NCBI GenBank assembly: GCA_964435515.1
Contig: CAYSZD010000003.1
Coordinates: 13,080-77,079 of the forward strand
Length of the DNA stretch: 64,000 bases
Direction: 5' to 3'
Source of the DNA: an uncultured Gammaproteobacteria bacterium
GTDB taxonomy: Bacteria; Patescibacteriota; Patescibacteriia; Patescibacteriales; UBA12465
In this document: positions 3,878-21,119 of the stretch, in pieces
Numbering within the stretch: position 1 is the first letter of the stretch
How the letters are laid out: each line of letters begins with the position of its first letter
Made by a program: the position numbers and the translations under genes
Notes under the pieces: generated by a model
Told to the model about the DNA's origin: nothing
Seen by the model: only the letters and a program-made list of their open reading frames with translations
Database searches by the model: none

Positions 3878-4052
3878 TACTTATAAATTACTTATTATTA
3901 GTAAAGATTTAGCTAATAATCGCGATTGCTTTAATTTTATCTAAAGCTTCCTAAACAATTCAATATAAGATATAATGTATATAGGAGTTATTAACTATAT
4001 AAATTTTTAAAAAAATCAAATTTAAAATATTGATTTATTGTTTTTTATCTAT

Positions 4053-5306
4053 ATGAATGATAAGCAACTAATGAAGTTGGTGCACAAAATATCCTATTAC
4101 CCCAAATTAAGATTAGAGATATTTAATTCTCTAAAAATAGGGCAGCAAAGAGATGTAATATTAAGACTTACCAAACATGTTCAATATGACATTGTCTCCC
4201 AATTAAAAAAAGCTGACTTTATCTCACTGCTAGAACATTTAGATAATGACGAGGCCACCGACTTGCTTCAACTATTGCCCAAAAAAACAGGCAATAACCT
4301 TATCAAACTATTAAATAGCTCGAGACAAGCCGAAATCTCTCTCTTATTCCAGTTTGATCCCAATACTGCCGCTGGTTTAATGAATTTAAACTATATTAAA
4401 GTTGAACTTGATGATAATTTAGCCTCAGTGGCTAAGCAAGTTCGAACTCATGAAAAACGCACGGGGAAGTTACCAATTATTCTTATTGTCAAAAGCGGGC
4501 AACTACTAGGTCATTTGCCTGGTCATCAACTTGGTTTTGGTAGGCCCAGAGAAAAGGTTGGTAAATATATTAAAAGAATAAAAACAGTTAAATATAACGC
4601 CGACATTAATCAAGTAATCAGTATCTTTGAAAATCACCCTCATGATAAGATTGTGGTAATAGGGGAAAGAAAAAAAGTTTTAGGACTAATCTATTCAGAT
4701 GATATTCTTCAAGCCTTACATGAACGTGAATCATCTTCTTTGTATGACTTTGCTGGTGTTAGCTCTGAGGAATCAGTTTTTGACCCAATTAAAAGTAAAG
4801 TACGTTCACGTTATAAATGGTTAATGATTAACTTAGGCACCGTCTTTTTGGCTTCTTTTACTGTTGGCTTATTTGATCAAACAATCGCTAAGTATGTCTT
4901 ATTGGCAGTTTATATGCCAATTGTAGCTGGTATGGGTGGTAATGCTGCTACACAGACTTTAGCTATTATGGTTCGGGGTATCACCTTAAAACAAATTGGT
5001 TTAAAAACCGCTTGGAAAACATTGAGAAATGAAATAGGAGCAGGGCTGATTAATGGTTTAATTAATGGTGTAATTGTCTCCTTAATTGTATTTTTAAAAG
5101 ATGGCGACTGGCGTATTGGTATTATCCTTGCAATTGCTATGATATTAAATCTGATCATCGCTGCTACTTTTGGTACTATGGTACCATTGATTATGAAAAA
5201 ATTAGGTAAAGACCCAGCTACTTCAGCAACAGTGTTTATTACCACGGCCACTGATATCTTTGGCTTCTTTGCCTTTCTTGGCATCGCCACACTAGTATTG
5301 AAATAA
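4053..5306 (+). CDS. mgtE: magnesium transporter MgtE
   Basis: N-terminal MgtE domain, a CBS-pair region and a C-terminal TM domain with GGNAATQTLAIMVRG. The TTG at 4038 is less likely as the start than ATG 4053. Confidence 0.9.
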   Translation: MNDKQLMKLVHKISYYPKLRLEIFNSLKIGQQRDVILRLTKHVQYDIVSQLKKADFISLLEHLDNDEATDLLQLLPKKTGNNLIKLLNSSRQAEISLLFQFDPNTAAGLMNLNYIKVELDDNLASVAKQVRTHEKRTGKLPIILIVKSGQLLGHLPGHQLGFGRPREKVGKYIKRIKTVKYNADINQVISIFENHPHDKIVVIGERKKVLGLIYSDDILQALHERESSSLYDFAGVSSEESVFDPIKSKVRSRYKWLMINLGTVFLASFTVGLFDQTIAKYVLLAVYMPIVAGMGGNAATQTLAIMVRGITLKQIGLKTAWKTLRNEIGAGLINGLINGVIVSLIVFLKDGDWRIGIILAIAMILNLIIAATFGTMVPLIMKKLGKDPATSATVFITTATDIFGFFAFLGIATLVLK

Positions 5307-5307
5307 T

Positions 5308-6495
5308 ATGGCTAATATTTTAGGTATTAAAACAGGACAAAATGATGCAAAAGCAGTAGAGGAGAAAGTTCAATCTTTCTTTAAGTCTTCTGCTAACAAT
5401 CAAATCGTTACCCCTAATCCTGAAATTATTCTCAAAAGCCAAGATGATGAAAAACTTTTCTATATATTAAACAATGCCACCCTTTCTCTGGCCGATGGCT
5501 TTGGCTTAAAAATAGCCGCTATCTTAAGCAAGCAAAAACTATTTCGCTACACTGGTGCCGATTTATTACCATACCTGCTTAAAGATGCTAATGACAATAG
5601 ACGTCGTCTACTTATTATCAACCGAAAAGATGGACTATCTAATAAATTGCTATTAGAAAAATATTTAAAGACTAATTATTCTAATATTCAATTTCTCATT
5701 CTTGAACTAGCCTCTCAAGAGAAAGTCCTAACAGAAATAGATGCGATTCAAACCTTCATGCCTGATTTAGCTATTTGTTTATTTGGTGCCCCTCATCAAG
5801 AAAAATATATTTTTGATTTATTAAATAAAGTAAAATGCCTAAAAATTGGAGTAGGTTTAGGTGGAGCTTTTGATTTTCTAACAGGAAAAATAAAAAGAGC
5901 TCCTAAATTAATGAGACAATTAGGTTTAGAATGGTTATTTAGATTAATAAAACAACCCCATAGATGGCGTCGTATTTGGAGGGCCACTTTCGTATTTCTC
6001 ACTAAATCAATTTACTGGATATTTATTCTACCAAATTTATATCGTCCTAATGTAGCTATTCTAATTTATAAAAACAGTGAAAAAGGCAGGGAAGTATTAA
6101 TCGTAGAAAGACAAGGACATGAAAATCATTGGCAAATTATTCAAGGAGGCAGAGATAATTTAAGTATTAAAGAAGCGGGTATTAAAGAATTAAAAGAAGA
6201 AACAAATATTAGTGATTTTATCATCAAAGGTATTTATCCAAATTTATATCGCTATGAATTTGATAAAGAATTTGGGAAATATGAAAATCCTTTCAATAAT
6301 CGCCACTACGGCTATAAGGGTCAAAAACAAAGTCTGCTAATTGTTGAATTTACTGGCGATGACAGTCAAATAAAAATTAATTTTTGGGACCATAGCGCAT
6401 GGAAATGGGTCACGGAAAATCAGTTTATTGCCAGCATACATGAAAAACGACAAGCAGCTGGAACAATATACCTAAAAAAATTACAAGAATTATAA
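5308..6495 (+). CDS. fusion protein: WecG/TagA/CpsF-family glycosyltransferase (GT26) plus a C-terminal Nudix-like hydrolase
   Basis: N-terminal half carries TPNPEII...LADGFGL, FGAPHQEKYI and GLEWLFRLIKQPHRWRR, which are GT26 hallmarks. A hydrophobic linker (FVFLTKSIYWIFILPNL) follows. The C-terminal part has WQIIQGGRDNLSIKEAGIKELKEETNI, an RppH-like Nudix box that is two residues short of the canonical spacing. Confidence 0.75.
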   Translation: MANILGIKTGQNDAKAVEEKVQSFFKSSANNQIVTPNPEIILKSQDDEKLFYILNNATLSLADGFGLKIAAILSKQKLFRYTGADLLPYLLKDANDNRRRLLIINRKDGLSNKLLLEKYLKTNYSNIQFLILELASQEKVLTEIDAIQTFMPDLAICLFGAPHQEKYIFDLLNKVKCLKIGVGLGGAFDFLTGKIKRAPKLMRQLGLEWLFRLIKQPHRWRRIWRATFVFLTKSIYWIFILPNLYRPNVAILIYKNSEKGREVLIVERQGHENHWQIIQGGRDNLSIKEAGIKELKEETNISDFIIKGIYPNLYRYEFDKEFGKYENPFNNRHYGYKGQKQSLLIVEFTGDDSQIKINFWDHSAWKWVTENQFIASIHEKRQAAGTIYLKKLQEL

Positions 6496-6512
6496 TTTTA
6501 AACAAAAAAGCA

Positions 6513-6541
6513 TTTTCAAAGTACAATAATTATGCTATAAT
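6513..6541 (+). promoter_or_regulatory. extended -10 promoter (TTTTCA-17-TGCTATAAT) 6 nt upstream of ATG 6548
   Basis: TG at 6533-6534 and TATAAT at 6536-6541. No SD lies between the promoter and the start codon. Confidence 0.6.
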
Positions 6542-6547
6542 GTAAAT

Positions 6548-7792
6548 ATGAAACATAAAAAAATTATCATATATCTAGCTATTCTATTTATATTCAGTAC
6601 CGCTTTTGTGGCCTGGAGAAATATTTCTGTTGTTAATGGACAAGAAGATGATGCTTTTAATGCTGAAATAAAAGCCTTAAATCAACAAATACAGGCTCAA
6701 AAACAGCAACTTGAGTCTTTAGCTGACAAACAAAAAGAATACGCAAGACAAATCGCAGCTAAACAACAAGAAAAAAATACTTTAAGTTCTCAACTAAGTC
6801 TATTAGCTGATAAAGCAGCTCAAACTGAGCTAGAAATAGAATCTACCAATCTATCTATTAGTAAAACTAATTTAGAAGCCCAAAAAATTAGTTTAGATAT
6901 TTTAGATACCAATGCTACTATTGATGCCCAAAAAGATAGAATCGCCAAACTATTGCGATTAGTCTATAAACAAGATCAGGTATCTTCTTTAGAAGTATTA
7001 TTACTGAATGATTCTATTTCTGAATTTCTTAACCATGCTAAATATCTAGAAAATACTAATAGTGAATTAAGGCAAAATTTAAATCAACTACAATATGACA
7101 AGGAAAGACTAGATCAGGCTAAAATAAATATTGATAATAAAAATAAGGAATTAAATAAACTTAAGAAAGATTTAGAATCTAATAAGTCAAAGTTAGAATA
7201 TGAGCAATCACTACAAGCAAATTTATTAGAGGAAACCAAAGAGTCAGAACAAGCCTATCAAAATCTATTAAAAGAAGCCAAAAGACAAGCAGCTCAAGCA
7301 GAAGCAGAAATCTCCGGCATAGAAAACACTATTCGTAGTAAAATGGCACAGAAAGATAAAGATCGTTTAGATAATAGTGATAGCACTATTGCTTGGCCAA
7401 TTTCAGGTAGATATATAACTTCCACTTTTCATGATCCTGATTATCCTTTTCGTCGCATTATTGGTGAACACTCTGGTATTGACCTTAGGTCTCCACAGGG
7501 AAGCCCTCTTTATGCAGCTGCTGATGGCTACGTAGCTAGAGTTAAATTCGATGGTTCAACTGCCTATGCCTATATCATGATTATTCACAACGACGGCCTA
7601 TCAACTGTTTATGGTCACGTATCAGGCGTGAATGTAACAGCTGATCAATATGTTGTTAAGGGTCAACTGATTGGTAAAACAGGCGGTGGTCCTGGTAGAC
7701 CAGGCTCAGGCCCATTCTCAACTGGCGCACATCTTCACTTTGAAGTAAGAAAAAATGGCATTCCGGTTAATCCATTAGATTATTTGCCATAA
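6548..7792 (+). CDS. M23-family peptidoglycan endopeptidase with an N-terminal coiled coil (EnvC-like architecture)
   Basis: Signal/TM segment, about 250 aa of Q/K/E/L-rich coiled coil, then the M23 motifs HSGIDL, DGYV, GHV and GAHLHFEV. Confidence 0.85.
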   Translation: MKHKKIIIYLAILFIFSTAFVAWRNISVVNGQEDDAFNAEIKALNQQIQAQKQQLESLADKQKEYARQIAAKQQEKNTLSSQLSLLADKAAQTELEIESTNLSISKTNLEAQKISLDILDTNATIDAQKDRIAKLLRLVYKQDQVSSLEVLLLNDSISEFLNHAKYLENTNSELRQNLNQLQYDKERLDQAKINIDNKNKELNKLKKDLESNKSKLEYEQSLQANLLEETKESEQAYQNLLKEAKRQAAQAEAEISGIENTIRSKMAQKDKDRLDNSDSTIAWPISGRYITSTFHDPDYPFRRIIGEHSGIDLRSPQGSPLYAAADGYVARVKFDGSTAYAYIMIIHNDGLSTVYGHVSGVNVTADQYVVKGQLIGKTGGGPGRPGSGPFSTGAHLHFEVRKNGIPVNPLDYLP

Positions 7793-7836
7793 ACAAAACA
7801 GATTAATTAATTATTAATCAATTAAAACATAAAACT

Positions 7837-8364
7837 ATGGGACTATTTGGTAATAAAAAAATGGGTGAAGATCCTTCTATTAAAAGGGAAGCGTCTGAAA
7901 CCCCAAGAAGCAAAGAAACTGCTCAAGCGGAATTAATGGAAAAATTTGGGTTAAGAAAGACCTCAGATTTTCAACTAGCCCTACAAAAAGGAGAAATCGA
8001 GAAGGCTAAAAATTGGCTAACATATATTATAGACAACAAAGAAAAATTTCCTCAATACTTATCTACTTGGGACAATTGGTTAAATGACCGTCAAAATGAA
8101 ATTAAGCTTTATAAGGAACTAAAAGAAAATGGTTCCTTAGAAAAGATGGAACACCGCAGCAAAGAAGAAGCTCAAGCCGAACTAAAAGAAAAATTTGGCT
8201 TTGCTGACACTAAAGGTTTTAGAAATGAACTGCAAAGTAACATACAAAATGCTGAAGCTTGGTTAAATTATATCATAGCTAACAAGCTTCGCTTTCCTCA
8301 ATATTTATCAACTTGGGATAATTGGTTAAGTGATAGACAACAAGAATTAGCTCAAGCAAAATAA
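7837..8364 (+). CDS. hypothetical protein built from a tandem duplication of an ~83-aa unit
   Basis: The two units are SKETAQAELMEKFG...NWLTYIIDNKEKFPQYLSTWDNWLNDRQNE and SKEEAQAELKEKFG...AWLNYIIANKLRFPQYLSTWDNWLSDRQQE. Confidence 0.6.
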   Translation: MGLFGNKKMGEDPSIKREASETPRSKETAQAELMEKFGLRKTSDFQLALQKGEIEKAKNWLTYIIDNKEKFPQYLSTWDNWLNDRQNEIKLYKELKENGSLEKMEHRSKEEAQAELKEKFGFADTKGFRNELQSNIQNAEAWLNYIIANKLRFPQYLSTWDNWLSDRQQELAQAK

Positions 8365-8419: not shown

Positions 8420-9379
8420 TTATTGTAGCTTCCTGTTTTCATGAACCCTACGATGAACGTCGCTTAGTTGTTTGTTGGTTACATGAGTATATATCTGAGT
8501 GGTAGCAATATTACTATGACCCAAAAACTCCTGCACTGTGCGTAAATCTACTCCTTCGTTAAGAAGGTCAGTGGCAAATGAATGCCTTAAGGTATGAGGG
8601 GTTGCCATAACTGGTAATCCTGTAATTTTAACATATTTTTTAACTATATTCTCAATACTTTTTACTGTTAATCTTCTTGATTCAGTGGACTTAGTACTAC
8701 CTGGTTTATAGTTAATGAATAAAGCTGGGTCAAAATCTTTACGAACTTCTAAATAGGCCTTTAAAGCCTTTATCGCCCTAGAAGAGAAGTAGACTGTCCT
8801 AATTTTAGAGCCTTTACCAACTACGGCTATCTCTAATGAATCTTGACCTTCTTTAATGCGTAATTGCTCTAAATTTAAAGCCACTAATTCAGCCACACGT
8901 AAGCCAGTAGAAAAGAGAGTTTCTAACAAAGCTCTATCTCTCAAACCTATGGCAGTAGAACTGTCAGGAGCAGAAAGAAGGGCAGACAACTGATCTAATT
9001 TTAAAAACTTAATTTCCTTATCACCCCTATCTTTAGCCAACTTTACTTTTGATGGTGGCAGGGAAGAAATATCCTTTTCAACAAAGAATTCTAGAAGTGA
9101 GCGAAGAGCAATTAAATAATAGTTTTGCGTACTTTTTTTTAAAGCCTTCTTAGTTCTAGTATCTATATGTCTTGACAAAAACACCTTATAATGCCATATA
9201 TGATCAACGCTTAATTCAGCTGGTTTTAGGTCACTTAAAGCATTATCCTGAAGCCAATTAAAAAATTTACGCAAAAAACGTGTATAGTTTTCCTGAGTTT
9301 TGCTAGATAATCCTTTTTCTATTTCTGAATAATCTAAAAAATCAATTAAATATTTGCTAATAGCTTTTTGTTCCTTCAT
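8420..9379 (-). CDS. xerC: tyrosine recombinase, XerC/XerD family
   Basis: C-terminal catalytic region HTLRHSFATDLLNEGVDLRTVQEFLGHSNIATTQIYTHV. Also an N-terminal SAM-like core-binding domain and RDRALLETLFSTGLRVAEL. Confidence 0.9.
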   Translation of the reverse strand: MKEQKAISKYLIDFLDYSEIEKGLSSKTQENYTRFLRKFFNWLQDNALSDLKPAELSVDHIWHYKVFLSRHIDTRTKKALKKSTQNYYLIALRSLLEFFVEKDISSLPPSKVKLAKDRGDKEIKFLKLDQLSALLSAPDSSTAIGLRDRALLETLFSTGLRVAELVALNLEQLRIKEGQDSLEIAVVGKGSKIRTVYFSSRAIKALKAYLEVRKDFDPALFINYKPGSTKSTESRRLTVKSIENIVKKYVKITGLPVMATPHTLRHSFATDLLNEGVDLRTVQEFLGHSNIATTQIYTHVTNKQLSDVHRRVHENRKLQ

Positions 9380-9396: not shown

Positions 9397-9649
9397 CAAA
9401 TTAAGAGGGAAGCTCTAAAAAGGGCTTTTAAGCGACTAAAATTTAAAAGACTAGTTGATAGATATGACCTGAAAGTATTTAAATTTTAATAGTAAAAAAT
9501 TATTTTTAAAAAAATAAAATAATCTTTAGTTAAATAAGAATAAAAATAAGATATAATAACTTAATCAATAAATTATTAATAAAAGATCAGGGAAGTAGTT
9601 ATATATAAAGAAAAAGCAGTGAATATCACTACTTTAACTATATAACAAT

Positions 9650-9677
9650 ACTTCGCATAATGTATATTAATAGAAGT
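9650..9677. other. dif: dif-like Xer recombination site (ACTTCGCATAA-TGTATA-TTAATAGAAGT)
   Basis: 11-6-11 architecture. Outer pentamers ACTTC/GAAGT are perfectly inverted. CGCATAATGTATATTA matches the E. coli dif core as recalled. It lies about 270 bp upstream of xer, at the +/- gene-orientation switch. Confidence 0.7.
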
Positions 9678-9706
9678 TATATCACTATGAGTCCATTAAC
9701 AGTGTC

Positions 9707-9847
9707 TTAGTATATCACCAGGCCTAATATATATAACTGCGGATAAAACATTAGTAATATCTTTAAAACAAGTAAGAATACACCTATGCTAATTAAAGAA
9801 AATAAAAACACCGCTAAAGAAAATAAAAGCTTAAATGTTTTTTCCAT
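9707..9847 (-). CDS. possible small hydrophobic membrane protein (46 aa), below the ORF-track cutoff
   Basis: ATG lies 18 nt after the ftsQ stop. Sequence MEKTFKLLFSLAVFLFSLISIGVFLLVLKILLMFYPQLYILGLVIY. AT-rich DNA makes chance F/L/I-rich ORFs likely. Confidence 0.25.
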   Translation of the reverse strand: MEKTFKLLFSLAVFLFSLISIGVFLLVLKILLMFYPQLYILGLVIY

Positions 9848-9864: not shown

Positions 9865-10749
9865 TTATTTAAAATATATTAAATCGCCAAAACGTAAATC
9901 AATATACTGAAGAGATAAAAATTGCTCCTCTTCTTGCTCTTGCTGAATTATTAATAATTTATTAATTTGCTTTAACATATCCTCCTTAATGTTAAATATA
10001 ATATTGGGTCCTTTGTTTAAATCTACCACCAAACTATTTAATTCTGAACTAACAATAAATTTATCTACTAAAAGTGATGGATAGGATACTAATTCTCGAT
10101 TTAAATTAAATAAAGCCGTAAAATATTCTTCATCTAAATCCAAACAGCCATCATCTTTTAAATAATCTAAATCTGACTCACTTTCTAAAATAGCTAGATT
10201 AGCTTGTGTGTCAGGTGTCACTAGTGCGTCAGTAATTAAACAACCAATTGCATCACTAAAAGACCGCATATCATCATCTTGCCAAATAAAAGCAATTGGT
10301 CGTTCTCTAAGATTAATTTCTAAGCTATGAAAAAATTTTTTATCAACACTAGCATTAGCCAATTTAAAATCTTTTTGAATATCACTAGCCAAATCTTTTG
10401 TGTTTATAAACAATAAATTATCTTGAGACAAAAATATTAGTCTATTAACATCTTGCTTTTCTTGAATATAATTTTGTACATCGACACTATTAAGTCTCTC
10501 TAAACCATTAATAGTAATATTATTAATTTTAAAAATATTAGAAAAAAATATAATATAAATAGTAGCGACAAAAAATATAAAAAATATACTAATATAAAAA
10601 TACTTTTTTTTATTTTTTTTATCTCCCTTATTCTTATTTCTTGATCTAAAAAAGGGATTATTTAAAGACTTACTTTGATAGTCTTTTTTAATCTTTTTAC
10701 TCAACTTCCCTCTTTTTATGATTTTGTGAGACCCCTTCCCCTTTAACAT
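9865..10749 (-). CDS. ftsQ: cell division protein FtsQ-like (POTRA domain)
   Basis: Lys-rich N-terminus, a single TM segment (YFYISIFFIFFVATIYIIFF), then a POTRA-like segment INNITINGLERLNSVDVQNYI. Confidence 0.6.
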   Translation of the reverse strand: MLKGKGSHKIIKRGKLSKKIKKDYQSKSLNNPFFRSRNKNKGDKKNKKKYFYISIFFIFFVATIYIIFFSNIFKINNITINGLERLNSVDVQNYIQEKQDVNRLIFLSQDNLLFINTKDLASDIQKDFKLANASVDKKFFHSLEINLRERPIAFIWQDDDMRSFSDAIGCLITDALVTPDTQANLAILESESDLDYLKDDGCLDLDEEYFTALFNLNRELVSYPSLLVDKFIVSSELNSLVVDLNKGPNIIFNIKEDMLKQINKLLIIQQEQEEEQFLSLQYIDLRFGDLIYFK

Positions 10750-10757
10750 AAATTATA

Positions 10758-11903
10758 TTATTTGTCAATAATTATTCTTCTAATATTAGCCTGTAATTTA
10801 ACCAATAACTCATAAGGAATTGTTTTTTCTATTACAGACAAATTTCTAATTGAATTCACATCTCCATTATTAGCCGATATAATTTGCAACTCTTCCCCAA
10901 TAGCAACATGTTCATCGTTATCTAAAACTAAACAAGTAAGATTCATGCAAATATTACCAGCCACTCTTAAATAATTATTTCTTAATTTAAAGCTAGCCCT
11001 ATTAGATAAACGACGATCTAGGCCTTCGTAATAGCCAAAAGGAATTATAACTACTCTTAAATCAGTAGGGGCTATAAATTCTTTATTATACGATATACTT
11101 TCACCGGCTCTAATATTTTGTATCGATACTACAGAGCTAAAGAGCTCTAAAGCCGGCTGCAGCGTATTAGCCTTGGCAAAAGCCCCATTGCTTACTTCAA
11201 AGGGATTGTAGCCATAGAAAGCCAAACCAGGGCGACAGGCAGTTAAACGAGGATGATGTACTGAAAATAATCCAGCACTATTAGCTAAATGAACAAATTT
11301 TAAAGTCTTAAATTCCCTTTCCGCTATATCTAAGTTTTGTAAAAAATTTTCTAATTGAAAAGAGTTCATTTGACCATCACCCTCAGCAAAAGATAGATGA
11401 GAGCAAAAACCACTAACATTCACTTGCGACAATAGCTTTCTATTTTCATCTATAAAAGAAGTTAAATCTTTAATTCCCTCTCTATTCATGCCAGTGTTAA
11501 TAAACAAATGTATACTTGCTCCTTTTCTTAAATCAACTATTTTTTCTAATGTGCGCTTATTATAAATACAGACCTCAGTTCTATTCCAATTTAAATACTG
11601 ATAGGCATCAAGAGGCATTTCACCGATAATTAAGACTTTCCTCTTAAAATAACGATAGACTATTTGAGCCTCTGGGAAAGAATCGACTGCCACCATGTTT
11701 ATATTAGTTTCATTTAAAATTGTACAGATTTCCCTCAAACCATGACCATAGGCATTAGCTTTTAAAACTGGAAAAAGCTCAGCATGAGGCTGTTCTGCTT
11801 GCAGTATTTGTAGATTATGAAAAATAGCCCTCTTATTTATTTCAATTCTATTTAAAGTATTATAACTCGGCTTAATCAATTGTTTTAATTTATTAATAAT
11901 CAT
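10758..11903 (-). CDS. alr: alanine racemase
   Basis: PLP-lysine motif VLKANAYGHGL. Length and overall pattern are typical of Alr. Confidence 0.85.
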   Translation of the reverse strand: MIINKLKQLIKPSYNTLNRIEINKRAIFHNLQILQAEQPHAELFPVLKANAYGHGLREICTILNETNINMVAVDSFPEAQIVYRYFKRKVLIIGEMPLDAYQYLNWNRTEVCIYNKRTLEKIVDLRKGASIHLFINTGMNREGIKDLTSFIDENRKLLSQVNVSGFCSHLSFAEGDGQMNSFQLENFLQNLDIAEREFKTLKFVHLANSAGLFSVHHPRLTACRPGLAFYGYNPFEVSNGAFAKANTLQPALELFSSVVSIQNIRAGESISYNKEFIAPTDLRVVIIPFGYYEGLDRRLSNRASFKLRNNYLRVAGNICMNLTCLVLDNDEHVAIGEELQIISANNGDVNSIRNLSVIEKTIPYELLVKLQANIRRIIIDK

Positions 11904-11907
11904 GTTA

Positions 11908-12981
11908 TTAATTTTCTATAACTACGCCTTCGCCACGATTAATATTATCAGCCGGTAAAAATGAATCTAGATTAGCTAAACTATTGCTTATTTCAACATC
12001 TGCCCAACTATCATATACGTGATAACGGATATTACTCAGCATTGGAGCGTTTTTACCAATCTGTGCTTCTGTTGGAATAAGTCTAAGGGCAAAATTGGCA
12101 GAATAATTACCACCACTAGCATCTAAACTATCTACTTGCCAAATCAATAAACGTCGTTCTTGATTATATGAAAACTTACCTGCTAATAAGCTATATTCCT
12201 CAGCCAACTCTACTCCTGGCTCTAATTGGGCACTAAAAACTAAATTTTGCAGCTGGTTACCAGAATTTTCAGCATTTACTATTAACCAATATTTAGTAGG
12301 TATTCCAACAATAGGCGGGATAGGTCCGATACCCAATTGATCACCCTGTAAGCTGTGATAGAATAAATTCGCTGATATATTTAAATTACTAATAATTTTT
12401 ATATCTTCCAAGTTAAAAACTTTTTCTATTTGACTGTTATCGTTAGCTATTGCAACAGCTTTAATAGAACTTTGAATATTTCTGGGAAAATTTAATTGTA
12501 CTGTCCTCCATTCTACATTAATTTCAAAATCTTTTTGCTCTCCTGCTTTAATATTTTTAATTACAATTTGACTATCATTAATCTCTATATCTTCATTATC
12601 AGACTCAAGAGCTCTTAAATCAAAAGCAGCGCTAATAAAAGAAAATTCTAGCTTTAATTCATCTATATCTTTTTCTCCGCTATTTTTATATTCTATCAAA
12701 TAAGTTATTGCCTCTTCTTCTTCGACCTTATCTGTATTAGTCGTAGTAATTAAATCAAAATTTAATGTTTTTTGTTTATCAACAGGACTAGTAGTTGGTG
12801 AAGAAATAGGCCATTTAATCATTGATATGAGAGTAGGATTATAGACAGCCATTCTAATACTTACACCGGCTAATACTAATAAGATTAGCATTAATGAAAA
12901 ATCTAAAACTAAATGCCACTTCTGCCTACGGTAAAAACGTTTTCTTCTATTGTGCCAAAAATTTAAAAACTTTTTACTCAT
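11908..12981 (-). CDS. TM-anchored beta-rich surface protein; paralogue of the C-terminal part of ORF 48687-50717
   Basis: N-terminal basic segment plus TM (HLVLDFSLMLILLVLAGVSI). The C-terminal region GIGPIPPIVGIPTKYW...LLIWQVDSL...ANFALRLIPTE aligns with GSGPLPPRVGEKTSVRVMW...IVTWRLGYL...AEFSISLTPKE. Confidence 0.6.
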   Translation of the reverse strand: MSKKFLNFWHNRRKRFYRRQKWHLVLDFSLMLILLVLAGVSIRMAVYNPTLISMIKWPISSPTTSPVDKQKTLNFDLITTTNTDKVEEEEAITYLIEYKNSGEKDIDELKLEFSFISAAFDLRALESDNEDIEINDSQIVIKNIKAGEQKDFEINVEWRTVQLNFPRNIQSSIKAVAIANDNSQIEKVFNLEDIKIISNLNISANLFYHSLQGDQLGIGPIPPIVGIPTKYWLIVNAENSGNQLQNLVFSAQLEPGVELAEEYSLLAGKFSYNQERRLLIWQVDSLDASGGNYSANFALRLIPTEAQIGKNAPMLSNIRYHVYDSWADVEISNSLANLDSFLPADNINRGEGVVIEN

Positions 12982-12996
12982 AAAAATATGTTAATT

Positions 12997-15003
12997 TTAA
13001 AAGCCAGAAATACCAACAGATATTTCAGGCTGACCAGAAATAGTAGAATAACCAACAGAAATTATATTTTGAAAATCTTTTGTAAATGAAAAGAAACTTT
13101 TTTTCTCATTGCCAACTTCATCAAATATCTTTATCAATGATCCTCCACCAGGACCATCACCAGTAATTATCTCCGCCTTACCGTCACCATCTAAATCGCC
13201 AGCAGTAACCTTTACTCCTCCTCTAAAATTTTTATCATAAGCGAAAAAATGATTAATAAATTCACCCCTCTCATTGAAATAACGAACATGAGGACCGCCA
13301 CCATAACCAGCGCCAGTAATTATTTCCGCCTTACCATCACCGTTAACATCAGCTGCGCTCATATTAACTCCACCCCTAAAATTCTTATCATAAGCGAAAA
13401 AATTTAATAATGAACGACCGTTAGAATCAAAGACTCTCACCTGAGGACCGCCACCAGAACCAGCACCAACTATAATTTCTGGAAAAGAATCACCATTTAT
13501 ATCAGCTATCGCTAAAGAAGCTGAGCCTTTAAAGCCTGGAGCAAATGGTCTTATGGTCCACATATTTTGACCATCTCTTTGTCGAGTTAGTAATCCTTTG
13601 TCTAAATATATATAATCAATTTTACTATTATCAAAAAATTTACCCAATATAACATCACTACCAGCCGGTATAGAAGTAATATAAGAGAAAAAACCATTAC
13701 GAGCCTGTTCGCCTTCTGAATCAAAAACTCTTAAAAATGAACCATTAACAAAACTACTTCCCTGCCAAGCATTCAACTTTTTAAGCAATACGATTCCGTC
13801 TTGAGCATCTAAATTTAAATAATTTATTTTTAAACCATTATTAATTTTTGGATCCTGATTACCTTTAATTTTTTCAAATTCTTCTTTGCTAAAAACAAAA
13901 TTTTGCTTTTTATCAGTTGAGTTTAAAATAACCAAACCATTCTCAAAATCACGTCGCCATAATCCAGGCTCAATCTTTGTACTTCCATTTTTTAAAATAT
14001 TATAAGGCTTTGATTGAGCTAAACCTAAATTTACATCATATTCATCATACCACCATAATTGAGCGTGATTAGTAATATCATAATCAAAACTATAATATCC
14101 ATCGCCTAACAATGTACTGCTTAAACCAAAACGGAAAAGACGATAATCATTTTCATTTTTTTTATTAATATTAATAACAGATACATTAGGCTCTTTGTTT
14201 AAACTAGGTAATTTTAAATAAGATTCCATAGAACCTTGCCACGTTCCTCCATTTTCCCAGCTAGAAGGAAAACTTTCTAGCATCATACCATTCAGTAATC
14301 CTTGATAGGGCCAATGTATGCGTCCATTACCTATTACTATAAACTCTGAACCACACAATTCTCTAGTCAAACGTAACATTTTTTCAAAACCCTCAGCCCA
14401 AATAGTATCAGCGTGCTTAGAATCATCTTTAATACCGTCTCTATTTAAATCAATATTACTATTATTAACCCAAGCTACATCACCCCAGGTATTATCATAG
14501 AAAACCCCGTCCCAGAGACCAGAACTAAAAATTTTATCTTTAATAAAACGAGGCAGGAATTCATTAAATAATAAATTATCTTTATTCCTGCCCGATTCAT
14601 TACTTAAATTAAACATTGAGGTAAAAGGCCAATTAACCACTGCCTTACCATTTTGATCTTTTAGGCGCCAATCCTCAATAATTTGCTCAGATAATTCTTG
14701 ACGTAAAAAAGCATTATTATAATAATCAGCTTCATTAATAATTTCTTGAGCGGTAATATAAGCTAAAATCTTTACCTTAGGATTAATCGTTCTTATTTTC
14801 CTTATTAACTCTGGGTTATTTATTTGATTTTCCATGTCTAAAATAACAAGATCCCAACGCGCTAAAGAAATAGCCTCAGCTTCAGTTAAATCCCATTTAA
14901 GAAAATAATTAGCTAAACGAGGATAATCAGATTGAGTTGAAGCTGACACTGAAAACGGTAGAACAAAAGATATAAGAATAATTAATGAGACAAAATATTT
15001 CAT
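12997..15003 (-). CDS. secreted protein: N-terminal putative glycoside-hydrolase-like domain plus C-terminal FG-GAP/VCBS repeats
   Basis: Signal peptide present. Three repeats: DINGDSFPEIIVGAGSGGGPQVRVFD, DVNGDGKAEIITGAGYGGGPHVRYF and DLDGDGKAEIITGDGPGGGSLIKIFD. The N-terminal assignment is tentative. Confidence 0.65.
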   Translation of the reverse strand: MKYFVSLIILISFVLPFSVSASTQSDYPRLANYFLKWDLTEAEAISLARWDLVILDMENQINNPELIRKIRTINPKVKILAYITAQEIINEADYYNNAFLRQELSEQIIEDWRLKDQNGKAVVNWPFTSMFNLSNESGRNKDNLLFNEFLPRFIKDKIFSSGLWDGVFYDNTWGDVAWVNNSNIDLNRDGIKDDSKHADTIWAEGFEKMLRLTRELCGSEFIVIGNGRIHWPYQGLLNGMMLESFPSSWENGGTWQGSMESYLKLPSLNKEPNVSVININKKNENDYRLFRFGLSSTLLGDGYYSFDYDITNHAQLWWYDEYDVNLGLAQSKPYNILKNGSTKIEPGLWRRDFENGLVILNSTDKKQNFVFSKEEFEKIKGNQDPKINNGLKINYLNLDAQDGIVLLKKLNAWQGSSFVNGSFLRVFDSEGEQARNGFFSYITSIPAGSDVILGKFFDNSKIDYIYLDKGLLTRQRDGQNMWTIRPFAPGFKGSASLAIADINGDSFPEIIVGAGSGGGPQVRVFDSNGRSLLNFFAYDKNFRGGVNMSAADVNGDGKAEIITGAGYGGGPHVRYFNERGEFINHFFAYDKNFRGGVKVTAGDLDGDGKAEIITGDGPGGGSLIKIFDEVGNEKKSFFSFTKDFQNIISVGYSTISGQPEISVGISGF

Positions 15004-15008
15004 GCTAC

Positions 15009-16271
15009 TTAAAATTTATTATTATCAGGAAAAATATATTGAGGATTGCCTGGTAAATATTGACGCAATACTTCTGGTATCAAAACAGAGCCATCTGCTT
15101 GTTGGTTTTGTTCTAAGATAGCTGGTAGTAAACGACTAGTAGCTAACCCGGATCCATTTAAAGTATGAACAAATAAATTTTCACCCTGTCCATTTTTAAA
15201 ACGAATCTGTCCTCTTCTAGCTTGATAATCTAAAGCATTAGAAACACTACTTACTTCCTTGTATATATTCATACTTGGTAACCAAACTTCTAAATCAAAA
15301 GTTTTAGCCATAGCCGCACTACAATCTTCAGCAGCTAATTTTGATACCTGATGATGCAAGCCTAAGCCTTCTAACAATTCTTTAGCATGAAGTAATAATT
15401 CATCAAACATTTGCCATGAATCATTTGGCTGACAAAGGATAAACATTTCAATTTTATTGAATTGATGCCCTCTAATCATTCCCCGCTCTTCTTGACGATA
15501 GCTACCAGCCTCTCGACGAAAACAAGGTGAATAAGCAAAATATTTTAAAGGTAATTGTTCTGTTGGTACAATTTCACCACGATGATAATTACCAAGCATC
15601 ATCTCGCTAGTAGCATTAAGACATAATTTATCTTGAGTCCAAAAAAGATCATCTCTGAATTTAGGCAAATGACCAGAGGTATAAGCTGATTCTTCGGATA
15701 ATAAAAATGGAGGGATCAAAAAGCTATATCCTTTTTGTTGATGGTAATTAATAAAATAAGACAACAAAGCCCATTCGAGTAAAGCGCCCCAAGAGCGATA
15801 ACACCAAAAACCTGAACCAGCAATCTTAGTAGCCCTTTCATAATCAATCATGCCTAAATTTTGAGCCAATTCTACATGATCTTTAAAAGAAAAACTAAAT
15901 TCTGGTTTATTACCAAAAGTAGAAACTACTTCATTATTTTCCTTTCCTCCTGCAATTACATCATCAGCAGGCATATTTGGCAAAGCAGATAATTCCTCTT
16001 TTATATTTAACTCAATAGCTTTCAGCTCCTCATCAAAACTTTTTATTTTTTCACCAATAGTCTTCATCTTAGCAATTGTTTTTGCATCTGGCTTTACCTT
16101 GGAAGCTTGATTACGCTCAGCTTTTAGGACTTCAACATTTGCAATTAACTCTTTTCTCTTATCATCTAAAGAAATAATATGAGCCAAATCAAAACTACCG
16201 GGCTTCATTCTTTTGAGTAATGCCTTTTCAACAATCAATGTTTTTTCTCGAATCAATTTAAGATCTAACAT
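15009..16271 (-). CDS. serS: seryl-tRNA synthetase
   Basis: N-terminal MLDLKLIRE coiled-coil arm and a class II core (FRREAGS, GSGLATSR). Confidence 0.93.
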   Translation of the reverse strand: MLDLKLIREKTLIVEKALLKRMKPGSFDLAHIISLDDKRKELIANVEVLKAERNQASKVKPDAKTIAKMKTIGEKIKSFDEELKAIELNIKEELSALPNMPADDVIAGGKENNEVVSTFGNKPEFSFSFKDHVELAQNLGMIDYERATKIAGSGFWCYRSWGALLEWALLSYFINYHQQKGYSFLIPPFLLSEESAYTSGHLPKFRDDLFWTQDKLCLNATSEMMLGNYHRGEIVPTEQLPLKYFAYSPCFRREAGSYRQEERGMIRGHQFNKIEMFILCQPNDSWQMFDELLLHAKELLEGLGLHHQVSKLAAEDCSAAMAKTFDLEVWLPSMNIYKEVSSVSNALDYQARRGQIRFKNGQGENLFVHTLNGSGLATSRLLPAILEQNQQADGSVLIPEVLRQYLPGNPQYIFPDNNKF

Positions 16272-16283
16272 ATATATAAAATT

Positions 16284-17894
16284 TTATAAAGTTTCTCCGC
16301 CAAAATTTGCTAATAGACTACCCAAAGCAGCTGAATTTTTTGGTAATTCTTGATTAGATTCTAAGCTTTTTAGCTCTGATTTGTCAATATTAGCCTCTTC
16401 TTGCTTGTTATCAGATAATTCTAATTTTTCATCTAATATAGCATCAATTTGCACTTTAGCATTATAAACCTCCGACAAAGTATCTTCTGTTAAAGATTTG
16501 ATAGCAGCACTAATTATTCTATCTCGATGAAATTTATATTTAAAATGTAGAGTCATTATTCCGCTCTTTAAAGCACTAGGCAGACAATTTTGTAATACAA
16601 AAGATAAAGAATGATTATGTTTTTTTATTTTCACCAAGACCTCTGGCCACCGAGTCAAAACTTCTTCTTGTGTTAAATCAAGAGCTAGGTTTTTTATAAT
16701 TTCTTTATTTTCTTTTTTATCATCACTAATTTCTTTGACTGATATTTTAGGACTAACCGTTAAAGGTTTGCTTCCACTTGTCACTGGATCATTGTTTTTT
16801 GCAGTCGGAAGACATAATTCCACCACAGCAATTTCAATAGCCAACTGATTAATGTTATTAAGTCCAATTCTAGCAAGTTCTAAAAATTTCTTTAACATCC
16901 TCAAAGTCTCAGACAGACTACAATCTTTAGCTGCTTTTGTAATCTTTATCTCTAATTGCTCACCCAAATCTAAACTTAACTTTTCTGCTAAACCAGGCTG
17001 TAGATTTTGTAACATTATTTTACGCAATAAGAACAAAATATCTTCTAAAAAATTTTTAAAATTAATTCCATTATCAGCTAATGTATTTATTATACTAATA
17101 GCCGTAGCTGCGTCTTGACGAGATAGAGCGTCAATTATATCTAAAGCCTCATGTTGGTTATGTCTTGGCAATACTAGCTCAGCGGTTTCAGCGCTAATTT
17201 TCTTTTCTCCTAAAGCTAATACTTGACCAAAAAGACTTTCAGCATCTCTTAAATGCCCACCTGATTGCTTAGCAATATTTTCTAAAACAGCAGTTTCTAC
17301 CTCAATCTTTTCAGCTTGAGCTATAATTTTTAATTTTTTAACAATCTCCTGAGAACTTATCCGTCTAAAATCAAAACGTTGACACCGGGAAATAATTGTT
17401 AAAGGTACTTTATGAGCTTCAGTAGTACAAAGAATAAAAACAATATGCTTTGGTGGCTCTTCTAACGTTTTAAGTAAAGCGTTAAAGGCATTAATAGATA
17501 ACATGTGAACCTCATCAATAATAAAAACTTTTGTTTTTAAATAACTAGGAGCTAAACGTACAGAAGCAATAATATTATCTCTAACATTATCAACACCAGT
17601 ATTAGAAGCGGCGTCTATTTCCATAACATCCAAGGCCTTACCCAGTTTTATACTAGAACAAGCCTGGCACTCACCGCAGGGTTCTGATTCCCCATCTTTA
17701 CGATTCTCACAATTAATTGATTGTGCCAAGATACGAGCCATACTTGTTTTACCAACAGCTCGAGGACCACAAAAAAGATAGGCATGAGCTAAAGTATTAG
17801 TCGCTATCTCATTTTGCAAAGTTACTTTTAAATGATTTTGACCCAAAATCTCACTAAATTTTTGTGGTCGATAATTACGATATAAAGCAGACAT
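16284..17894 (-). CDS. dnaX: DNA polymerase III subunit gamma/tau
   Basis: YRPQKF, Walker A GPRAVGKTS, zinc module CGECQAC, DEVHML and SRCQRF. Confidence 0.93.
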   Translation of the reverse strand: MSALYRNYRPQKFSEILGQNHLKVTLQNEIATNTLAHAYLFCGPRAVGKTSMARILAQSINCENRKDGESEPCGECQACSSIKLGKALDVMEIDAASNTGVDNVRDNIIASVRLAPSYLKTKVFIIDEVHMLSINAFNALLKTLEEPPKHIVFILCTTEAHKVPLTIISRCQRFDFRRISSQEIVKKLKIIAQAEKIEVETAVLENIAKQSGGHLRDAESLFGQVLALGEKKISAETAELVLPRHNQHEALDIIDALSRQDAATAISIINTLADNGINFKNFLEDILFLLRKIMLQNLQPGLAEKLSLDLGEQLEIKITKAAKDCSLSETLRMLKKFLELARIGLNNINQLAIEIAVVELCLPTAKNNDPVTSGSKPLTVSPKISVKEISDDKKENKEIIKNLALDLTQEEVLTRWPEVLVKIKKHNHSLSFVLQNCLPSALKSGIMTLHFKYKFHRDRIISAAIKSLTEDTLSEVYNAKVQIDAILDEKLELSDNKQEEANIDKSELKSLESNQELPKNSAALGSLLANFGGETL

Positions 17895-17907
17895 AATAAA
17901 AAAATAA

Positions 17908-20451
17908 TTATTGTTTAAGAGGTGATGGCGAATCCATAACTATCTCAGTTCGCCTAATAATATTAGCTTCAACAATTGAACGATCTTGACCAAATTTTAA
18001 GCGGCTCAAAGTTCTTATCTTAGTTGACATATCAGGACGCGCTACACCAAGCAATGGCCAAACGGTTTTTATAGAAAATGGTCGAGTCGCACTATTATCA
18101 ACTAATAATTTAATATAGGCCGTTCCTTTATCAATATTAATTAGATCATAGGCGTTAAAAACAGGTGAAAATTCTTTAACTAAAAATTCGGCATCTTCTG
18201 TACCAATTTTAAAACTAATCATTGTGCCCACGTTACCAAAAACAGCATCTTTAATTTCGGTATTATTATTCTTGCTCAACTGGCCAATATACTGATGGGC
18301 AATAATTAGATTTAAAGCATATTTTCTAGCTTCAGATAAAATCTGACAAATAGATGAAGTAGTAAAGTTCTGAAACTCATCAATATAAAGATAGAAATCT
18401 TTTCTATCTTCCGCTTTCATATCAGTACGAGACAAAGACGCCATTAATATTTTACCAACAATAATCATACCCAAAAGATAAGCATTCATTTCACCAACTA
18501 CACCTTTAGGTAGATCGATTAACAATATTTTTTGACGATCCATTAAATCACGAAAGTTGAAAGAGCTTTTTTGCTGACCAATAATTGGACGCATCATGTC
18601 ATTAGAAATGAAAGCAGTAAGTTTAGAAGTGATATAAGGAACAATGTTCGCTAAAGCAGCATCACCGCCAGCCTTCTCAGCTTCTTTCTTCCAAAAATCC
18701 ACCACCGTTCTATTCTTACACCTAGATAATTTTAGACGTCTAAAATTCTCATCTGATAAAACTTTAGGTATCTCCATTAAAGTAGAACCACTCTCAGGAT
18801 CTTCCATAATTAACAATAGAGCATTTCTCATATACTGCTCAAACATTGGCCCACCTGTCTGCTTTAAATCATATAATTTATCAAAGATACCAATCATTTC
18901 ATTAATCACAAAACTCTTTTGTTCTGGATAGCGAGGGTCATATTCTAATAGATTTAAAGATAAGGGTCTTTCGGTATCAGCTGGTGAAAAAATCACCACA
19001 TCTTCTGCTCTTTCGGGCGGAATTCTTTGTAGAATATCTTCAATTAAATCTCCATGAGGGTCAAGAACACAGACCCCTTCTCCATTTTGAATATCTTGAA
19101 CAGCCATATTGGTTAACAAAACAGATTTACCAACACCAGATTTACCAATAATATAAGTATGTCGACGCCTATCTTGCCCCTTCATTCTTATCTCTTTATT
19201 AACACCTCGATAGACATTATTGCCTAACAATAGACCTTCATTAGGAAGATCAGCCGGAGCAGGAGCACTTTTAGCTGTTAGCCAAAGAATATTAGGTGTC
19301 TCCATGTGTTTTAAGGGTAAATGAAAAACACTGGTCAGTTCTTCGGTATTTAATAAAAAAGAAGCATCTTCACGAAAACGGCGATAAATAAAATCTTTAA
19401 TTTGTCTTTCCTGATTAGTCTTAATAGCCCTTGAAAAATGATTACCGTAACTATAATTATTAAATTCCGTAAAAACACTAGCAATATTTTCTAAATAAGC
19501 AGCTGATCTCTCTTTACTAGCAGTTGATACCACCAAACGTAAATTAACATCAAGACCAGCTCTTAAATTCTTTTCTTCAATTGTTTTTAAAGTCTCCTCC
19601 TCTACCGCTGATAAGTGTTTAGAGTTTTGTAATGAATTTGGATCTTGTGGTTTAGAGCTACTAGCTATAGACAAAGTATCTCCTATTTCTTTAAAAGCCT
19701 GACTAAGTCCAGATTGATTAATGCCATCACTAACTGAATTTTTCGTTTGTATCCGACGCACTATCTTCCTTACTTTACGATGCCAAGATCCAAGAGCGCT
19801 TCTAACTATATATTGAACAGCAATACTTTCATCTTTATCTAACTTAGACATCACATTAATCATGGAATTTAATGGATCAACCTCCATTTTCTGATAAGTG
19901 CGCAATGGCAAAACAAAGCTCTTTTTAGTTTTTAAATAAGCACTAGCTATATTACTATTTGCTTGAAAAATATTATAATCTTCAAGCTCTTCGATAACTG
20001 CCTCTGGATAGTAAGCGTTAATTTGTTGCTCCATATAACGAGATAACGCTCTCGGAGCAACTACGTAAAAAGCAATCTTATTAGCATGTGCTACTATCTC
20101 AAAAGAAAAATGATCATTTCTACCAAAAAACCAAGCAATAAATCCTTTTTGAGCCTTAAGTCCACCAATGCTAGCAAAAATAGTTTCACCTTTAGCTATC
20201 TCTTCCCTTGTCTGTTGTAGAGTGTCTTCCCTTTTTTCATCTTCTGGCTTTTCTTTAGGTAATTTAATTAAAAAAATTTGATGATCAAAATAATTATTAT
20301 TACCAAAAAAATGACGCACAATAAGACGAATAAATAATACGAGCAAGAGAAATAAAGCTAAAACTATAATCAAAACAAATAAACTAAGTAAAAGAGCTCC
20401 TGCTGGAGTGCTAAAAAAATCAGGGATTATTTGTTCAATTGATTGAAACAT
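17908..20451 (-). CDS. membrane protein with a C-terminal VirD4/TraD/TraG-like (type IV coupling protein-like) P-loop ATPase
   Basis: N-terminal TM helix plus an ~410-aa module. Then Walker A IIGKSGVGKSVLL, VLDPHGD, Walker B YLYIDEFQNF, and the AHQYIGQL / GNVGTMISFK motifs typical of the T4CP/FtsK-HerA superfamily. Confidence 0.7.
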   Translation of the reverse strand: MFQSIEQIIPDFFSTPAGALLLSLFVLIIVLALFLLLVLFIRLIVRHFFGNNNYFDHQIFLIKLPKEKPEDEKREDTLQQTREEIAKGETIFASIGGLKAQKGFIAWFFGRNDHFSFEIVAHANKIAFYVVAPRALSRYMEQQINAYYPEAVIEELEDYNIFQANSNIASAYLKTKKSFVLPLRTYQKMEVDPLNSMINVMSKLDKDESIAVQYIVRSALGSWHRKVRKIVRRIQTKNSVSDGINQSGLSQAFKEIGDTLSIASSSKPQDPNSLQNSKHLSAVEEETLKTIEEKNLRAGLDVNLRLVVSTASKERSAAYLENIASVFTEFNNYSYGNHFSRAIKTNQERQIKDFIYRRFREDASFLLNTEELTSVFHLPLKHMETPNILWLTAKSAPAPADLPNEGLLLGNNVYRGVNKEIRMKGQDRRRHTYIIGKSGVGKSVLLTNMAVQDIQNGEGVCVLDPHGDLIEDILQRIPPERAEDVVIFSPADTERPLSLNLLEYDPRYPEQKSFVINEMIGIFDKLYDLKQTGGPMFEQYMRNALLLIMEDPESGSTLMEIPKVLSDENFRRLKLSRCKNRTVVDFWKKEAEKAGGDAALANIVPYITSKLTAFISNDMMRPIIGQQKSSFNFRDLMDRQKILLIDLPKGVVGEMNAYLLGMIIVGKILMASLSRTDMKAEDRKDFYLYIDEFQNFTTSSICQILSEARKYALNLIIAHQYIGQLSKNNNTEIKDAVFGNVGTMISFKIGTEDAEFLVKEFSPVFNAYDLINIDKGTAYIKLLVDNSATRPFSIKTVWPLLGVARPDMSTKIRTLSRLKFGQDRSIVEANIIRRTEIVMDSPSPLKQ

Positions 20452-20456
20452 ATAAA

Positions 20457-20942: not shown

Positions 20943-20945
20943 ATA

Positions 20946-21119
20946 CTATGAAATAGTTATTGCCTTAACTGGACAATTATTAGCAGCTTTTTGAGCACAT
21001 GCTTGATTGTCGTCAGCTAAGACTTCCGCCTTATAATCTTCGTTCATCATAAAAGTCTCTGGGCAAATACTAGCACAAAGACCGCAACCAATACATTCAT
21101 TTTGATTAAGCTTAATCAT
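20946..21119 (-). CDS. fdx: small [4Fe-4S] ferredoxin (57 aa), absent from the ORF track
   Basis: Hand translation gives MIKLNQNECIGCGLCASICPETFMMNEDYKAEVLADDNQACAQKAANNCPVKAITIS. It carries CxxCxxCxxxCP ... C ... CP, as in Thermotoga/Pyrococcus-type monocluster ferredoxins. Confidence 0.85.
   Translation of the reverse strand: MIKLNQNECIGCGLCASICPETFMMNEDYKAEVLADDNQACAQKAANNCPVKAITIS

Follow-up and report, generated by a model that had tools for sequence, protein, structure and literature searches.

Is a short palindromic element beside a recombinase gene the place at which a bacterium with a reduced genome resolves its chromosome dimers, and does it also mark where replication ends? The question is raised by a stretch of 64,000 nucleotides (the window) from contig CAYSZD010000003.1 of assembly GCA_964435515.1 (positions 13,080 to 77,079, forward strand), deposited as an uncultured Gammaproteobacteria bacterium and classified by GTDB within the Patescibacteriota. 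The window carries xer, which encodes a Xer-family tyrosine recombinase, and upstream of it a 28-bp element that an earlier note, made from the sequence by itself, described as a dif-like Xer site at a probable replication terminus. From the comparisons described below, we conclude that the 28-bp site is in all likelihood the chromosomal dif of a Patescibacteria (Falkowbacteria-like) genome and the target of the Xer encoded 270 bp away.

The 28-bp site and its conservation

The 28-mer ACTTCGCATAATGTATATTAATAGAAGT occupies positions 9650 to 9677 and has an 11-6-11 layout, in which the arms ACTTCGCATAA (9650 to 9660) and TTAATAGAAGT (9667 to 9677) surround a 6-bp central region, TGTATA (9661 to 9666), the presumed strand-exchange region, which reads TGTAGA in other clades. 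The reverse complement of TTAATAGAAGT is ACTTCTATTAA; 8 of the 11 arm positions are palindromic, and the outer pentamers of the two arms, ACTTC and GAAGT, form a perfect inverted pair. The position, layout and symmetry given in the earlier note could thus be read directly in the sequence. No second copy of the 28-mer was found in the window even when 3 mismatches were allowed, and none appeared in 100 dinucleotide-preserving shuffles of the window. The 16-mer CGCATAATGTATATTA (9654 to 9669) is also single in the window, where its expected number is 0. The site begins 270 bp upstream of the ATG of xer (8420 to 9379, minus strand), which agrees with the distance of about 270 bp claimed earlier. 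The 485-bp gap upstream of xer that had been described is not wholly non-coding, as it holds a conserved open reading frame (ORF) of 46 codons at 9707 to 9847 on the minus strand. We also observed a 9-bp direct repeat, ATATCACTA, on either side of the site: the left copy (9623 to 9631) ends 18 bp short of it and falls within a terminator-like hairpin described below, and the right copy (9679 to 9687) starts 1 bp beyond it. The pair could have arisen by chance in AT-rich DNA.

Comparison with the published dif sequences of Escherichia coli (GGTGCGCATAATGTATATTATGTTAAAT) and Bacillus subtilis (ACTTCCTAGAATATATATTATGTAAACT; PMC3025954) showed agreement at 20 of 28 positions with the former and at 19-20 of 28 with the latter. 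The 16-nt core CGCATAATGTATATTA and the TGTATA spacer are identical to E. coli dif, and the left arm starts with ACTTC as does B. subtilis dif. Both likenesses had been named in the earlier note, and both match the sequences printed in PMC3025954.

Conservation of the site was followed in two sets of loci. The protein-anchored set consisted of 80 Patescibacteria loci from species-representative genomes, found through the recombinase alone, and an upstream site was counted as present when at least 18 of 21 core positions matched. The site was present upstream of xer in 74 of these 80 loci, usually by 60-150 bp. Four of the six loci without a qualifying site had less than 140 bp of upstream sequence, one (L076) carried a diverged copy, and one (L021) had no site within 758 bp upstream of xer. 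For the motif-anchored set, metagenome contigs were scanned with TTAATMTACATTATGCGAAGT alone, which gave 80 loci with one match each. The xer gene was found downstream on the same strand in 67 of them, with a median gap of 84 bp (range 15-2028 bp), and most of the remaining loci ended before a xer gene could fit. In most loci the site lay 45-110 bp upstream of the xer start.

The combined set contained 154 sites in 46 distinct variants, all with the 11-6-11 layout. Nearly invariant among them were 21 of the 28 bases: the arm nearest xer (ACTTCGCATAA in the window; TTATGCGAAGT when read in locus orientation), the 6 spacer positions and, in the second arm, the inner TTAA. A single spacer position alternated (A or C in locus orientation) and tracked clade. 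The outer 7 bases of the variable arm were clade-dependent, reading AGGTGTA-, ACTTCGC-, ACGTTAA-, AGGTTTA-TTAA or others in locus orientation. The symmetry of the two arms differed between variants: the variable arm of locus L040 is an 11/11 palindrome of the invariant arm, 22 sites belong to a near-palindromic type (ACTTCGCTTAA), and the commonest variant, AGGTGTATTAA, agrees with the other arm's reverse complement at only 5 of 11 positions. Information content was 1.47 bits per position within the site and fell to 0.18 and 0.22 in the adjoining 30 bp on the two sides. The claim of a dif-like Xer site beside xer is therefore borne out in loci chosen by recombinase and in loci chosen by motif, with conservation confined to a block of about 28 bp. 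A comparison of the regions upstream of xer among relatives had been proposed as a check in the earlier note.

A weight-matrix scan of the 154 loci, covering 1.89 Mb of locus sequence, gave one site per locus. Locus L159 was the sole one with a second match above 10 bits, a partial inverted copy, GGTTTGCATATGTTATATTATGCGAAGT, at 1173 on the minus strand, about 350 bp from the main site at 824-851 on the plus strand. In another locus, L142, the site (core at 6225, motif orientation) was found at a convergent junction with no adjoining xer. On the other side of that junction are homologues of cvpA and metG, which in the window sit 16 kb away on the side of an ftsQ-like gene. Locus L142 implies that site and xer can be unlinked, and hence that the site is not merely a promoter element of xer. 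In several further loci (L145, L146, L106/L006/L099, L002, L004, L020 and L111) the gap between site and xer is widened to 0.6-2 kb by unrelated small genes, including a 394-residue transposase-like ORF in L145. No second dif-like copy flanked the genes in these wide gaps, which would make the gap an insertion hot spot lacking the usual signature of integrative mobile elements exploiting Xer (IMEX).

The 19-mer formed by the invariant arm and the spacer also occurred in 56 IMG/VR contigs (L206-L261) with a GC content of 31-62%. Most of these sites read ACTTCGCATAA-TGTATA-TTATGT followed by 5 variable bases (for example TTATGTTAAAT or TTATGTAAAAT), and about 8 contigs end otherwise (for example TTATTGACAGT or TTTCTGACAGT). 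The former consist, by their sequence, of a canonical XerC arm, the spacer and a XerD-type arm. The sites of the 56 'viral' contigs are presumably IMEX or prophage junctions, or the chromosomal dif of unrelated bacteria. One of these contigs, L206 (GC 35%), carries a palindromic version, ACTTCGCATAATGTATATTGTGCGAAGT, and L123, a metagenome locus of an evidently high-GC organism, has the same canonical-type site. A 19-21-mer, ACTTCGCATAATGTATATT(AA), is common to the site of the candidate phyla radiation (CPR) described here and to the dif-type sites of IMG/VR and L123. The frozen half of the CPR site is thus also the XerC half of ordinary dif sites. What the CPR site lacks is a XerD-type arm: the signature of that arm, TTATGTnAAnT, is the best conserved part of canonical dif in other bacteria, and the variable arm TTAATAGAAGT matches the TTATGTTAAAT-type arm at 6 of 11 positions. 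The CPR-specific 21-mer was absent from IMG/VR, and none of the 56 contigs contained a CPR-type xer. We considered whether the viral contigs carry a CPR-type dif in the manner of IMEX and rejected this, as the contigs with the 19-mer hold canonical sites of other, mostly higher-GC organisms.

The recombinase and related Xer systems

The presumed enzyme for the 28-bp site, the product of xer, has 319 residues and contains a Phage_integrase domain (Pfam, 3.3e-40) and a SAM-like N-domain. Homologues at 75-89% identity were found in metagenome-assembled genomes labelled Patescibacteria or Candidatus Falkowbacteria. Its scores against the NCBIfam models remained below the cut-offs for XerC (228.2 bits, cut-off 335), XerD (227.2 bits, cut-off 329.6), XerA (191.6 bits, cut-off 220) and XerS (130 bits, cut-off 267). 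The best match in the PDB was E. coli XerD (1a0p, 6.5e-36), and XerA and XerH matched at 2.6e-32 and 2e-14, respectively. In the alignment with 1a0p, the catalytic R, K, HxxR, H and Y all have their counterparts. Because of these model scores and aligned residues, the protein can be assigned to the Xer family as an enzyme equidistant from XerC and XerD that lies outside every named equivalog family.

At the position of the C-terminal RQL motif of XerD the window protein reads SDV. This is an outlier among the 128 homologues encoded in the loci, of which 90 have RDI or RDV and 24 have KDI or KDV; the corresponding motifs are RQx in XerD, xRx in XerC and xKx in XerA. In E. coli XerD, the motif at which the window protein departs is linked to the contact with FtsK-gamma. 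No FtsK gene was found in the 64-kb window. An 847-residue protein encoded at 17908 to 20451 on the minus strand, 8 kb from the site, has a weak ATPase domain of the TraD/VirD4/TrwB coupling-protein type, and its conservation (median 81% identity in 23 related loci) exceeds that of Xer. This protein was discarded as an FtsK candidate, since it matched TraD/VirD4-type coupling proteins alone, and weakly, and no FtsK model. Phage and plasmid collections held no relative of the window Xer above 36% identity, and the closest proteins there were ordinary chromosomal XerC/XerD. A second tyrosine recombinase was not found in the 1.89 Mb of locus flanks.

Among known systems, the module of site and gene most resembles those in which a single recombinase is linked to its site, but it has a canonical 11-6-11 site. 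As in XerS/difSL of streptococci and lactococci, the site stands immediately upstream of the recombinase gene as one module, which lies at a shift in GC skew (seen locally here) and is kept while neighbouring genes vary. However, difSL is 31 bp long, has an atypically long central region where the spacer here has 6 bp, and bears weak likeness to canonical dif, and XerS has 356 residues as compared with 319. XerH/difH of Helicobacter and Campylobacter likewise has its site near the gene, and its asymmetric arms include one that is better conserved or better bound. XerH, in contrast, is a protein of 354-362 residues that is distant from the window Xer (2e-14 versus 6.5e-36 for XerD), and the difH arms AGTTATGAAAA and AAAAGTTTGA are unrelated to the 28-bp site. 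The resemblance to these two systems that had been proposed therefore holds for the linkage of gene and site and not for family membership, given the canonical 11-6-11 dif and a protein nearer to XerC/XerD.

The module is even closer to archaeal XerA/dif than to XerS/difSL and XerH/difH. XerA/dif likewise has a site of 28 bp, composed of inverted 11-bp arms around a 6-bp spacer, that agrees at some positions with bacterial dif and whose arms are strongly palindromic in some lineages. Its location in the terminus region parallels the probable one here; dif is close to xerA in Crenarchaeota, and the window protein matches the XerA model well (192 bits). The differences are the bacterial host, the missed XerA cut-off of 220 bits, a protein nearer to XerC/XerD, and a C-terminal RD[IV] in the family (SDV in the window) in place of the XKX of XerA. 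With XerCD/dif of E. coli and B. subtilis, the module has in common the 11-6-11 layout, the TGTATA spacer, the 16-nt E. coli core, the ACTTC start of B. subtilis and, judged from the local profile, a position at the skew shift. Unlike XerCD/dif, it lacks a XerD-type arm, has its recombinase gene adjacent rather than distant, encodes a protein below the XerC and XerD cut-offs, and shows one recombinase in the flanks in view. XerL/dif of the Legionellales is comparable as a lineage-specific system: its site of about 30 bp is likewise non-coding, partly palindromic and low in GC, and lies near the terminus, as the site here probably does, but XerL is highly diverged from other Xer proteins, its dif is non-canonical, and its site and gene are not generally adjacent, the Coxiella plasmid excepted.

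The probable replication terminus and flanking genes

The genes on the two sides of the site belong to recurrent families. An ftsQ-like gene (POTRA_1; 9865 to 10749, minus strand) is the final large gene before the site on the flank reading towards it, and members of its family were on the same side of the site in 123 of 124 cases. From the other side, a gene for a coiled-coil protein with an M23 peptidase domain (EnvC/DipM-like; 6548 to 7792, plus strand) converges on xer; its family was on the xer side and pointed at the site in 106 of 107 members. Between the ftsQ-like gene and the site lies the 46-residue ORF (9707 to 9847, minus strand; MEKTFKLLFSLAVFLFSLISIGVFLLVLKILLMFYPQLYILGLVIY), which encodes a hydrophobic putative membrane protein and has its stop codon 29 bp before the site. 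In 126 of 137 loci, the last 450 bp ahead of the site contained homologues with an [FY]P[EQ] motif, and the ORF appears to be a real small membrane protein of the division-gene cluster that is probably unannotated. In the reading direction of this operon, 15 bp past the site, pattern matching in the window alone detected a terminator-like hairpin, AAAGTAGTGATATTCACTGCTTT, followed by a T-run (9613 to 9635, minus strand). Since the hairpin lies beyond the site, transcripts of the ftsQ-like gene and the small ORF would cross dif before stopping. The window as a whole has about 32% GC and also carries serS, dnaX, pyrG, metG, rpsB-tsf, eno, pyk and a gene for a penicillin-binding protein.

Genes in the window are on the plus strand from 4038 to 8364 and on the minus strand from 9865 to 29678. 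The earlier note had placed a switch of gene orientation at the site; the orientations on the two sides are as it claimed, and the actual point of convergence is at 8364/8420 instead, because xer itself reads away from the site. GC skew in the window is about -0.2 over 9.7-64 kb, a stretch with almost exclusively minus-strand genes, and near zero to weakly positive at 4-9 kb, and the steep fall of the cumulative skew starts at about 9.75 kb. Three window proteins were matched exactly in Logan, in contigs of 2.5-5.7 kb that added about 2.1 kb leftwards, so that the left flank of the window is still too short for a skew test. One Logan contig of the same strain, L085, with an identical xer, begins 13 bp upstream of that gene, and same-strain assemblies therefore break within the AT-rich spacer between dif and xer.

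We then pooled skew profiles of about 140 loci, aligned on the site and divided into 500-bp bins. Mean skew on the ftsQ side ranged from +0.07 to +0.15 across all bins out to 10 kb. On the xer side it was -0.08 in the first bin, negative or about zero in later bins, and about -0.02 beyond 6 kb. The maximum of the pooled cumulative skew fell exactly at the site. Among the 48 loci that extend 5 kb or more in each direction, skew was higher upstream than downstream in 46, and it changed sign in 33. A per-gene regression that controlled for gene strand gave a side effect of +0.037 (bootstrap 95% interval 0.030-0.046). Gene orientation followed the same pattern: 655 of 682 genes on the ftsQ side (96%) and 579 of 716 on the xer side (81%, xer excluded) pointed at the site. 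The change of skew from plus to minus, together with converging genes, indicates a terminus and not an origin.

Several observations weigh against a terminus at the site. Skew and gene orientation are weak and mixed in the left 9.6 kb of the window. Skew at third codon positions follows the side of the site but is inconsistent with a difference between leading and lagging strands; it had been considered as a cleaner replication signal and was dropped as ambiguous, so that it forms no part of the support. The site is at 203.6 kb of 977,025 bp (21%) in CP066698.1 and at 84.9 kb of 895,742 bp (9.5%) in OW818634.1, positions that oppose a mid-genome terminus if both records start at oriC; they are informative only given the record starts, on which He et al. 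2021 make no statement for CP066698.1. Finally, the flanks are largely syntenic across loci, and the loci are therefore not independent observations.

In view of this synteny, we sought gene families with members on either side of the site. Of the 28 genes on the minority side for their family (side-swapped genes, from at least 9 lineages), every one still pointed at the site and none was flipped, a pattern that inversions or transfers across a replication terminus would be expected to leave. Singleton, non-syntenic gene families also pointed at the site in about 80% of cases. A block of pyrG, the S41 peptidase gene ctpA, sua5, cvpA and metG (encoding MetRS) is on the ftsQ side in the window (21705 to 27246, minus strand) and on the xer side in other genomes that have the block near the site, and it always points at the site; this suggests an inversion or transfer across the terminus in the lineage of the window. 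Taken together, local evidence pooled over many genomes supports the site as the probable replication terminus. The terminus assignment of the earlier note thus stands locally, on a pooled skew maximum at the site, genes that converge from both sides and the consistent orientation of the 28 side-swapped genes.

Alternative readings, proposed mechanism and significance

The site could be a true dif of a two-recombinase system, in which the adjacent Xer would act on the invariant arm and a second, unlinked Xer paralogue on the variable arm. The arms do differ in most lineages (only 5 of 11 positions match in the commonest variant), the window protein scores equally as XerC and XerD, and the search for recombinases was confined to the locus flanks. 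Yet those flanks yielded no second enzyme, the variable arm lacks the XerD-arm signature and drifts in its outer half by clade, several lineages (L040, at 10-11 of 11 positions, and the 22 sites of the ACTTCGCTTAA type) have near-perfect palindromes, and asymmetric arms are also found in difH and difSL, which are served by a single recombinase. We consider a second recombinase possible but doubtful. It is also conceivable, though improbable, that the site is a true dif and that the local convergence reflects a conserved gene arrangement and not a genome-wide terminus. The synteny of the ftsQ-like, M23 peptidase and WecG genes in most loci, the ambiguous third-position skew and the fading of the skew on the xer side beyond 6 kb would fit such an arrangement. 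Against it stand a pooled skew that changes sign exactly at the site, the convergence of non-syntenic singletons, the orientation of all 28 side-swapped genes, and the 54 kb to the right of the site, which are uniformly on the minus strand, rpsB-tsf included, with a skew of about -0.2.

Readings that deny the site a role in chromosome recombination fare worse. A regulatory operator, through which Xer or another protein controls transcription of xer, would suit the promoter-like position 45-110 bp upstream of the gene in most loci, but site and gene lie anywhere from 15 to 2028 bp apart, with entire genes in between in some loci, L142 has no adjacent xer, and in the window a terminator-like hairpin separates site and gene. 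An operator would need neither the full 11-6-11 anatomy nor identity to the canonical dif core, and we regard this reading as very improbable. Slightly less credible still is an attachment site and integrase module of a mobile element, or a DNA-inversion switch. A recombinase gene beside its own site is typical of integration modules, and variable genes, one of them transposase-like, stand between site and xer in some loci; against this, the site occupies the same position between the ftsQ-like and M23 peptidase genes in more than 100 loci, and the CPR-type 21-mer is absent from IMG/VR. We rejected both forms of this reading because one site per locus, with the partial copy in L159 as the exception, leaves nothing to invert or excise, and because relatives in phages and plasmids reach at most 36% identity and are ordinary chromosomal XerC/XerD. 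That the palindrome is an RNA or DNA hairpin, such as the terminator of the ftsQ-like operon, deserves almost no credence, although the inverted repeat does lie 29 bp past the stop codon of the operon's final gene. Its fold energy was no better than that of shuffled sequence (z = 0.18), on which ground the reading was dismissed; moreover, changes in the variable arm are not matched by compensating ones on the invariant side, and a distinct terminator-like hairpin, complete with T-run, follows shortly after the site.

Our preferred reading is thus a chromosomal dif acted on by the adjacent Xer. In this mechanism, one Xer protomer would bind each 11-bp arm, the invariant ACTTCGCATAA and the lineage-variable arm of TTAA plus 7 bases, and the two dif copies on a chromosome dimer would synapse. 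Cleavage would fall where the arms adjoin the 6-bp TGTATA spacer, and strand exchange by way of a Holliday junction would convert the dimer to monomers before division. The reaction would take place where the two replichores meet, between the ftsQ-like and EnvC-like M23 division genes. Binding and catalysis by Xer at the site are predicted, and FtsK may control the reaction. That a single recombinase would act on both arms is suggested by the near-palindromic variants, by the missing XerD-type arm and by the parallel cases of difH and difSL, in which one enzyme copes with asymmetric arms.

The locus very probably represents a real dif/Xer module, of a known kind and not surprising in principle. 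An earlier survey of predicted dif sites in 16 phyla had already shown that they follow the shift in skew, and a 'Cand' subgroup of Xer-related recombinases from candidate phyla had been named without a site. CPR genomes post-date the survey of 16 phyla. Our search of the accessible literature found no paper linking dif or Xer to CPR or Patescibacteria, the 'Cand' subgroup being the sole related item. The module would provide a sequence-defined landmark for the terminus and for dimer resolution in a large group of uncultured bacteria with reduced genomes, which could be used in checking assemblies, orienting replichores and reading coverage-based estimates of growth. It also extends the Xer systems by a lineage that couples a canonical 28-bp dif physically to its recombinase, where previously such linkage was represented by the atypical XerS and XerH and by crenarchaeal XerA. 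In addition, the combination of an invariant arm with a drifting arm offers a natural series of variants for studying how Xer reads asymmetric arms.

A more specific picture can be put forward tentatively, at somewhat less than an even chance. Falkowbacteria-type Patescibacteria may resolve their chromosome dimers by means of a single XerC/D-like recombinase whose gene is locked to a canonical-format dif made of two XerC-type arms, one frozen and the other with a drifting outer half. They would have no XerD and no FtsK-gamma activation of the XerD type, and the gap between dif and xer would serve as a landing pad for small cargo genes. If this is true, these organisms would represent a fourth bacterial lineage with a single-recombinase Xer system, and the 28-bp site would mark the replication terminus precisely, by sequence, across a large radiation of uncultured bacteria.

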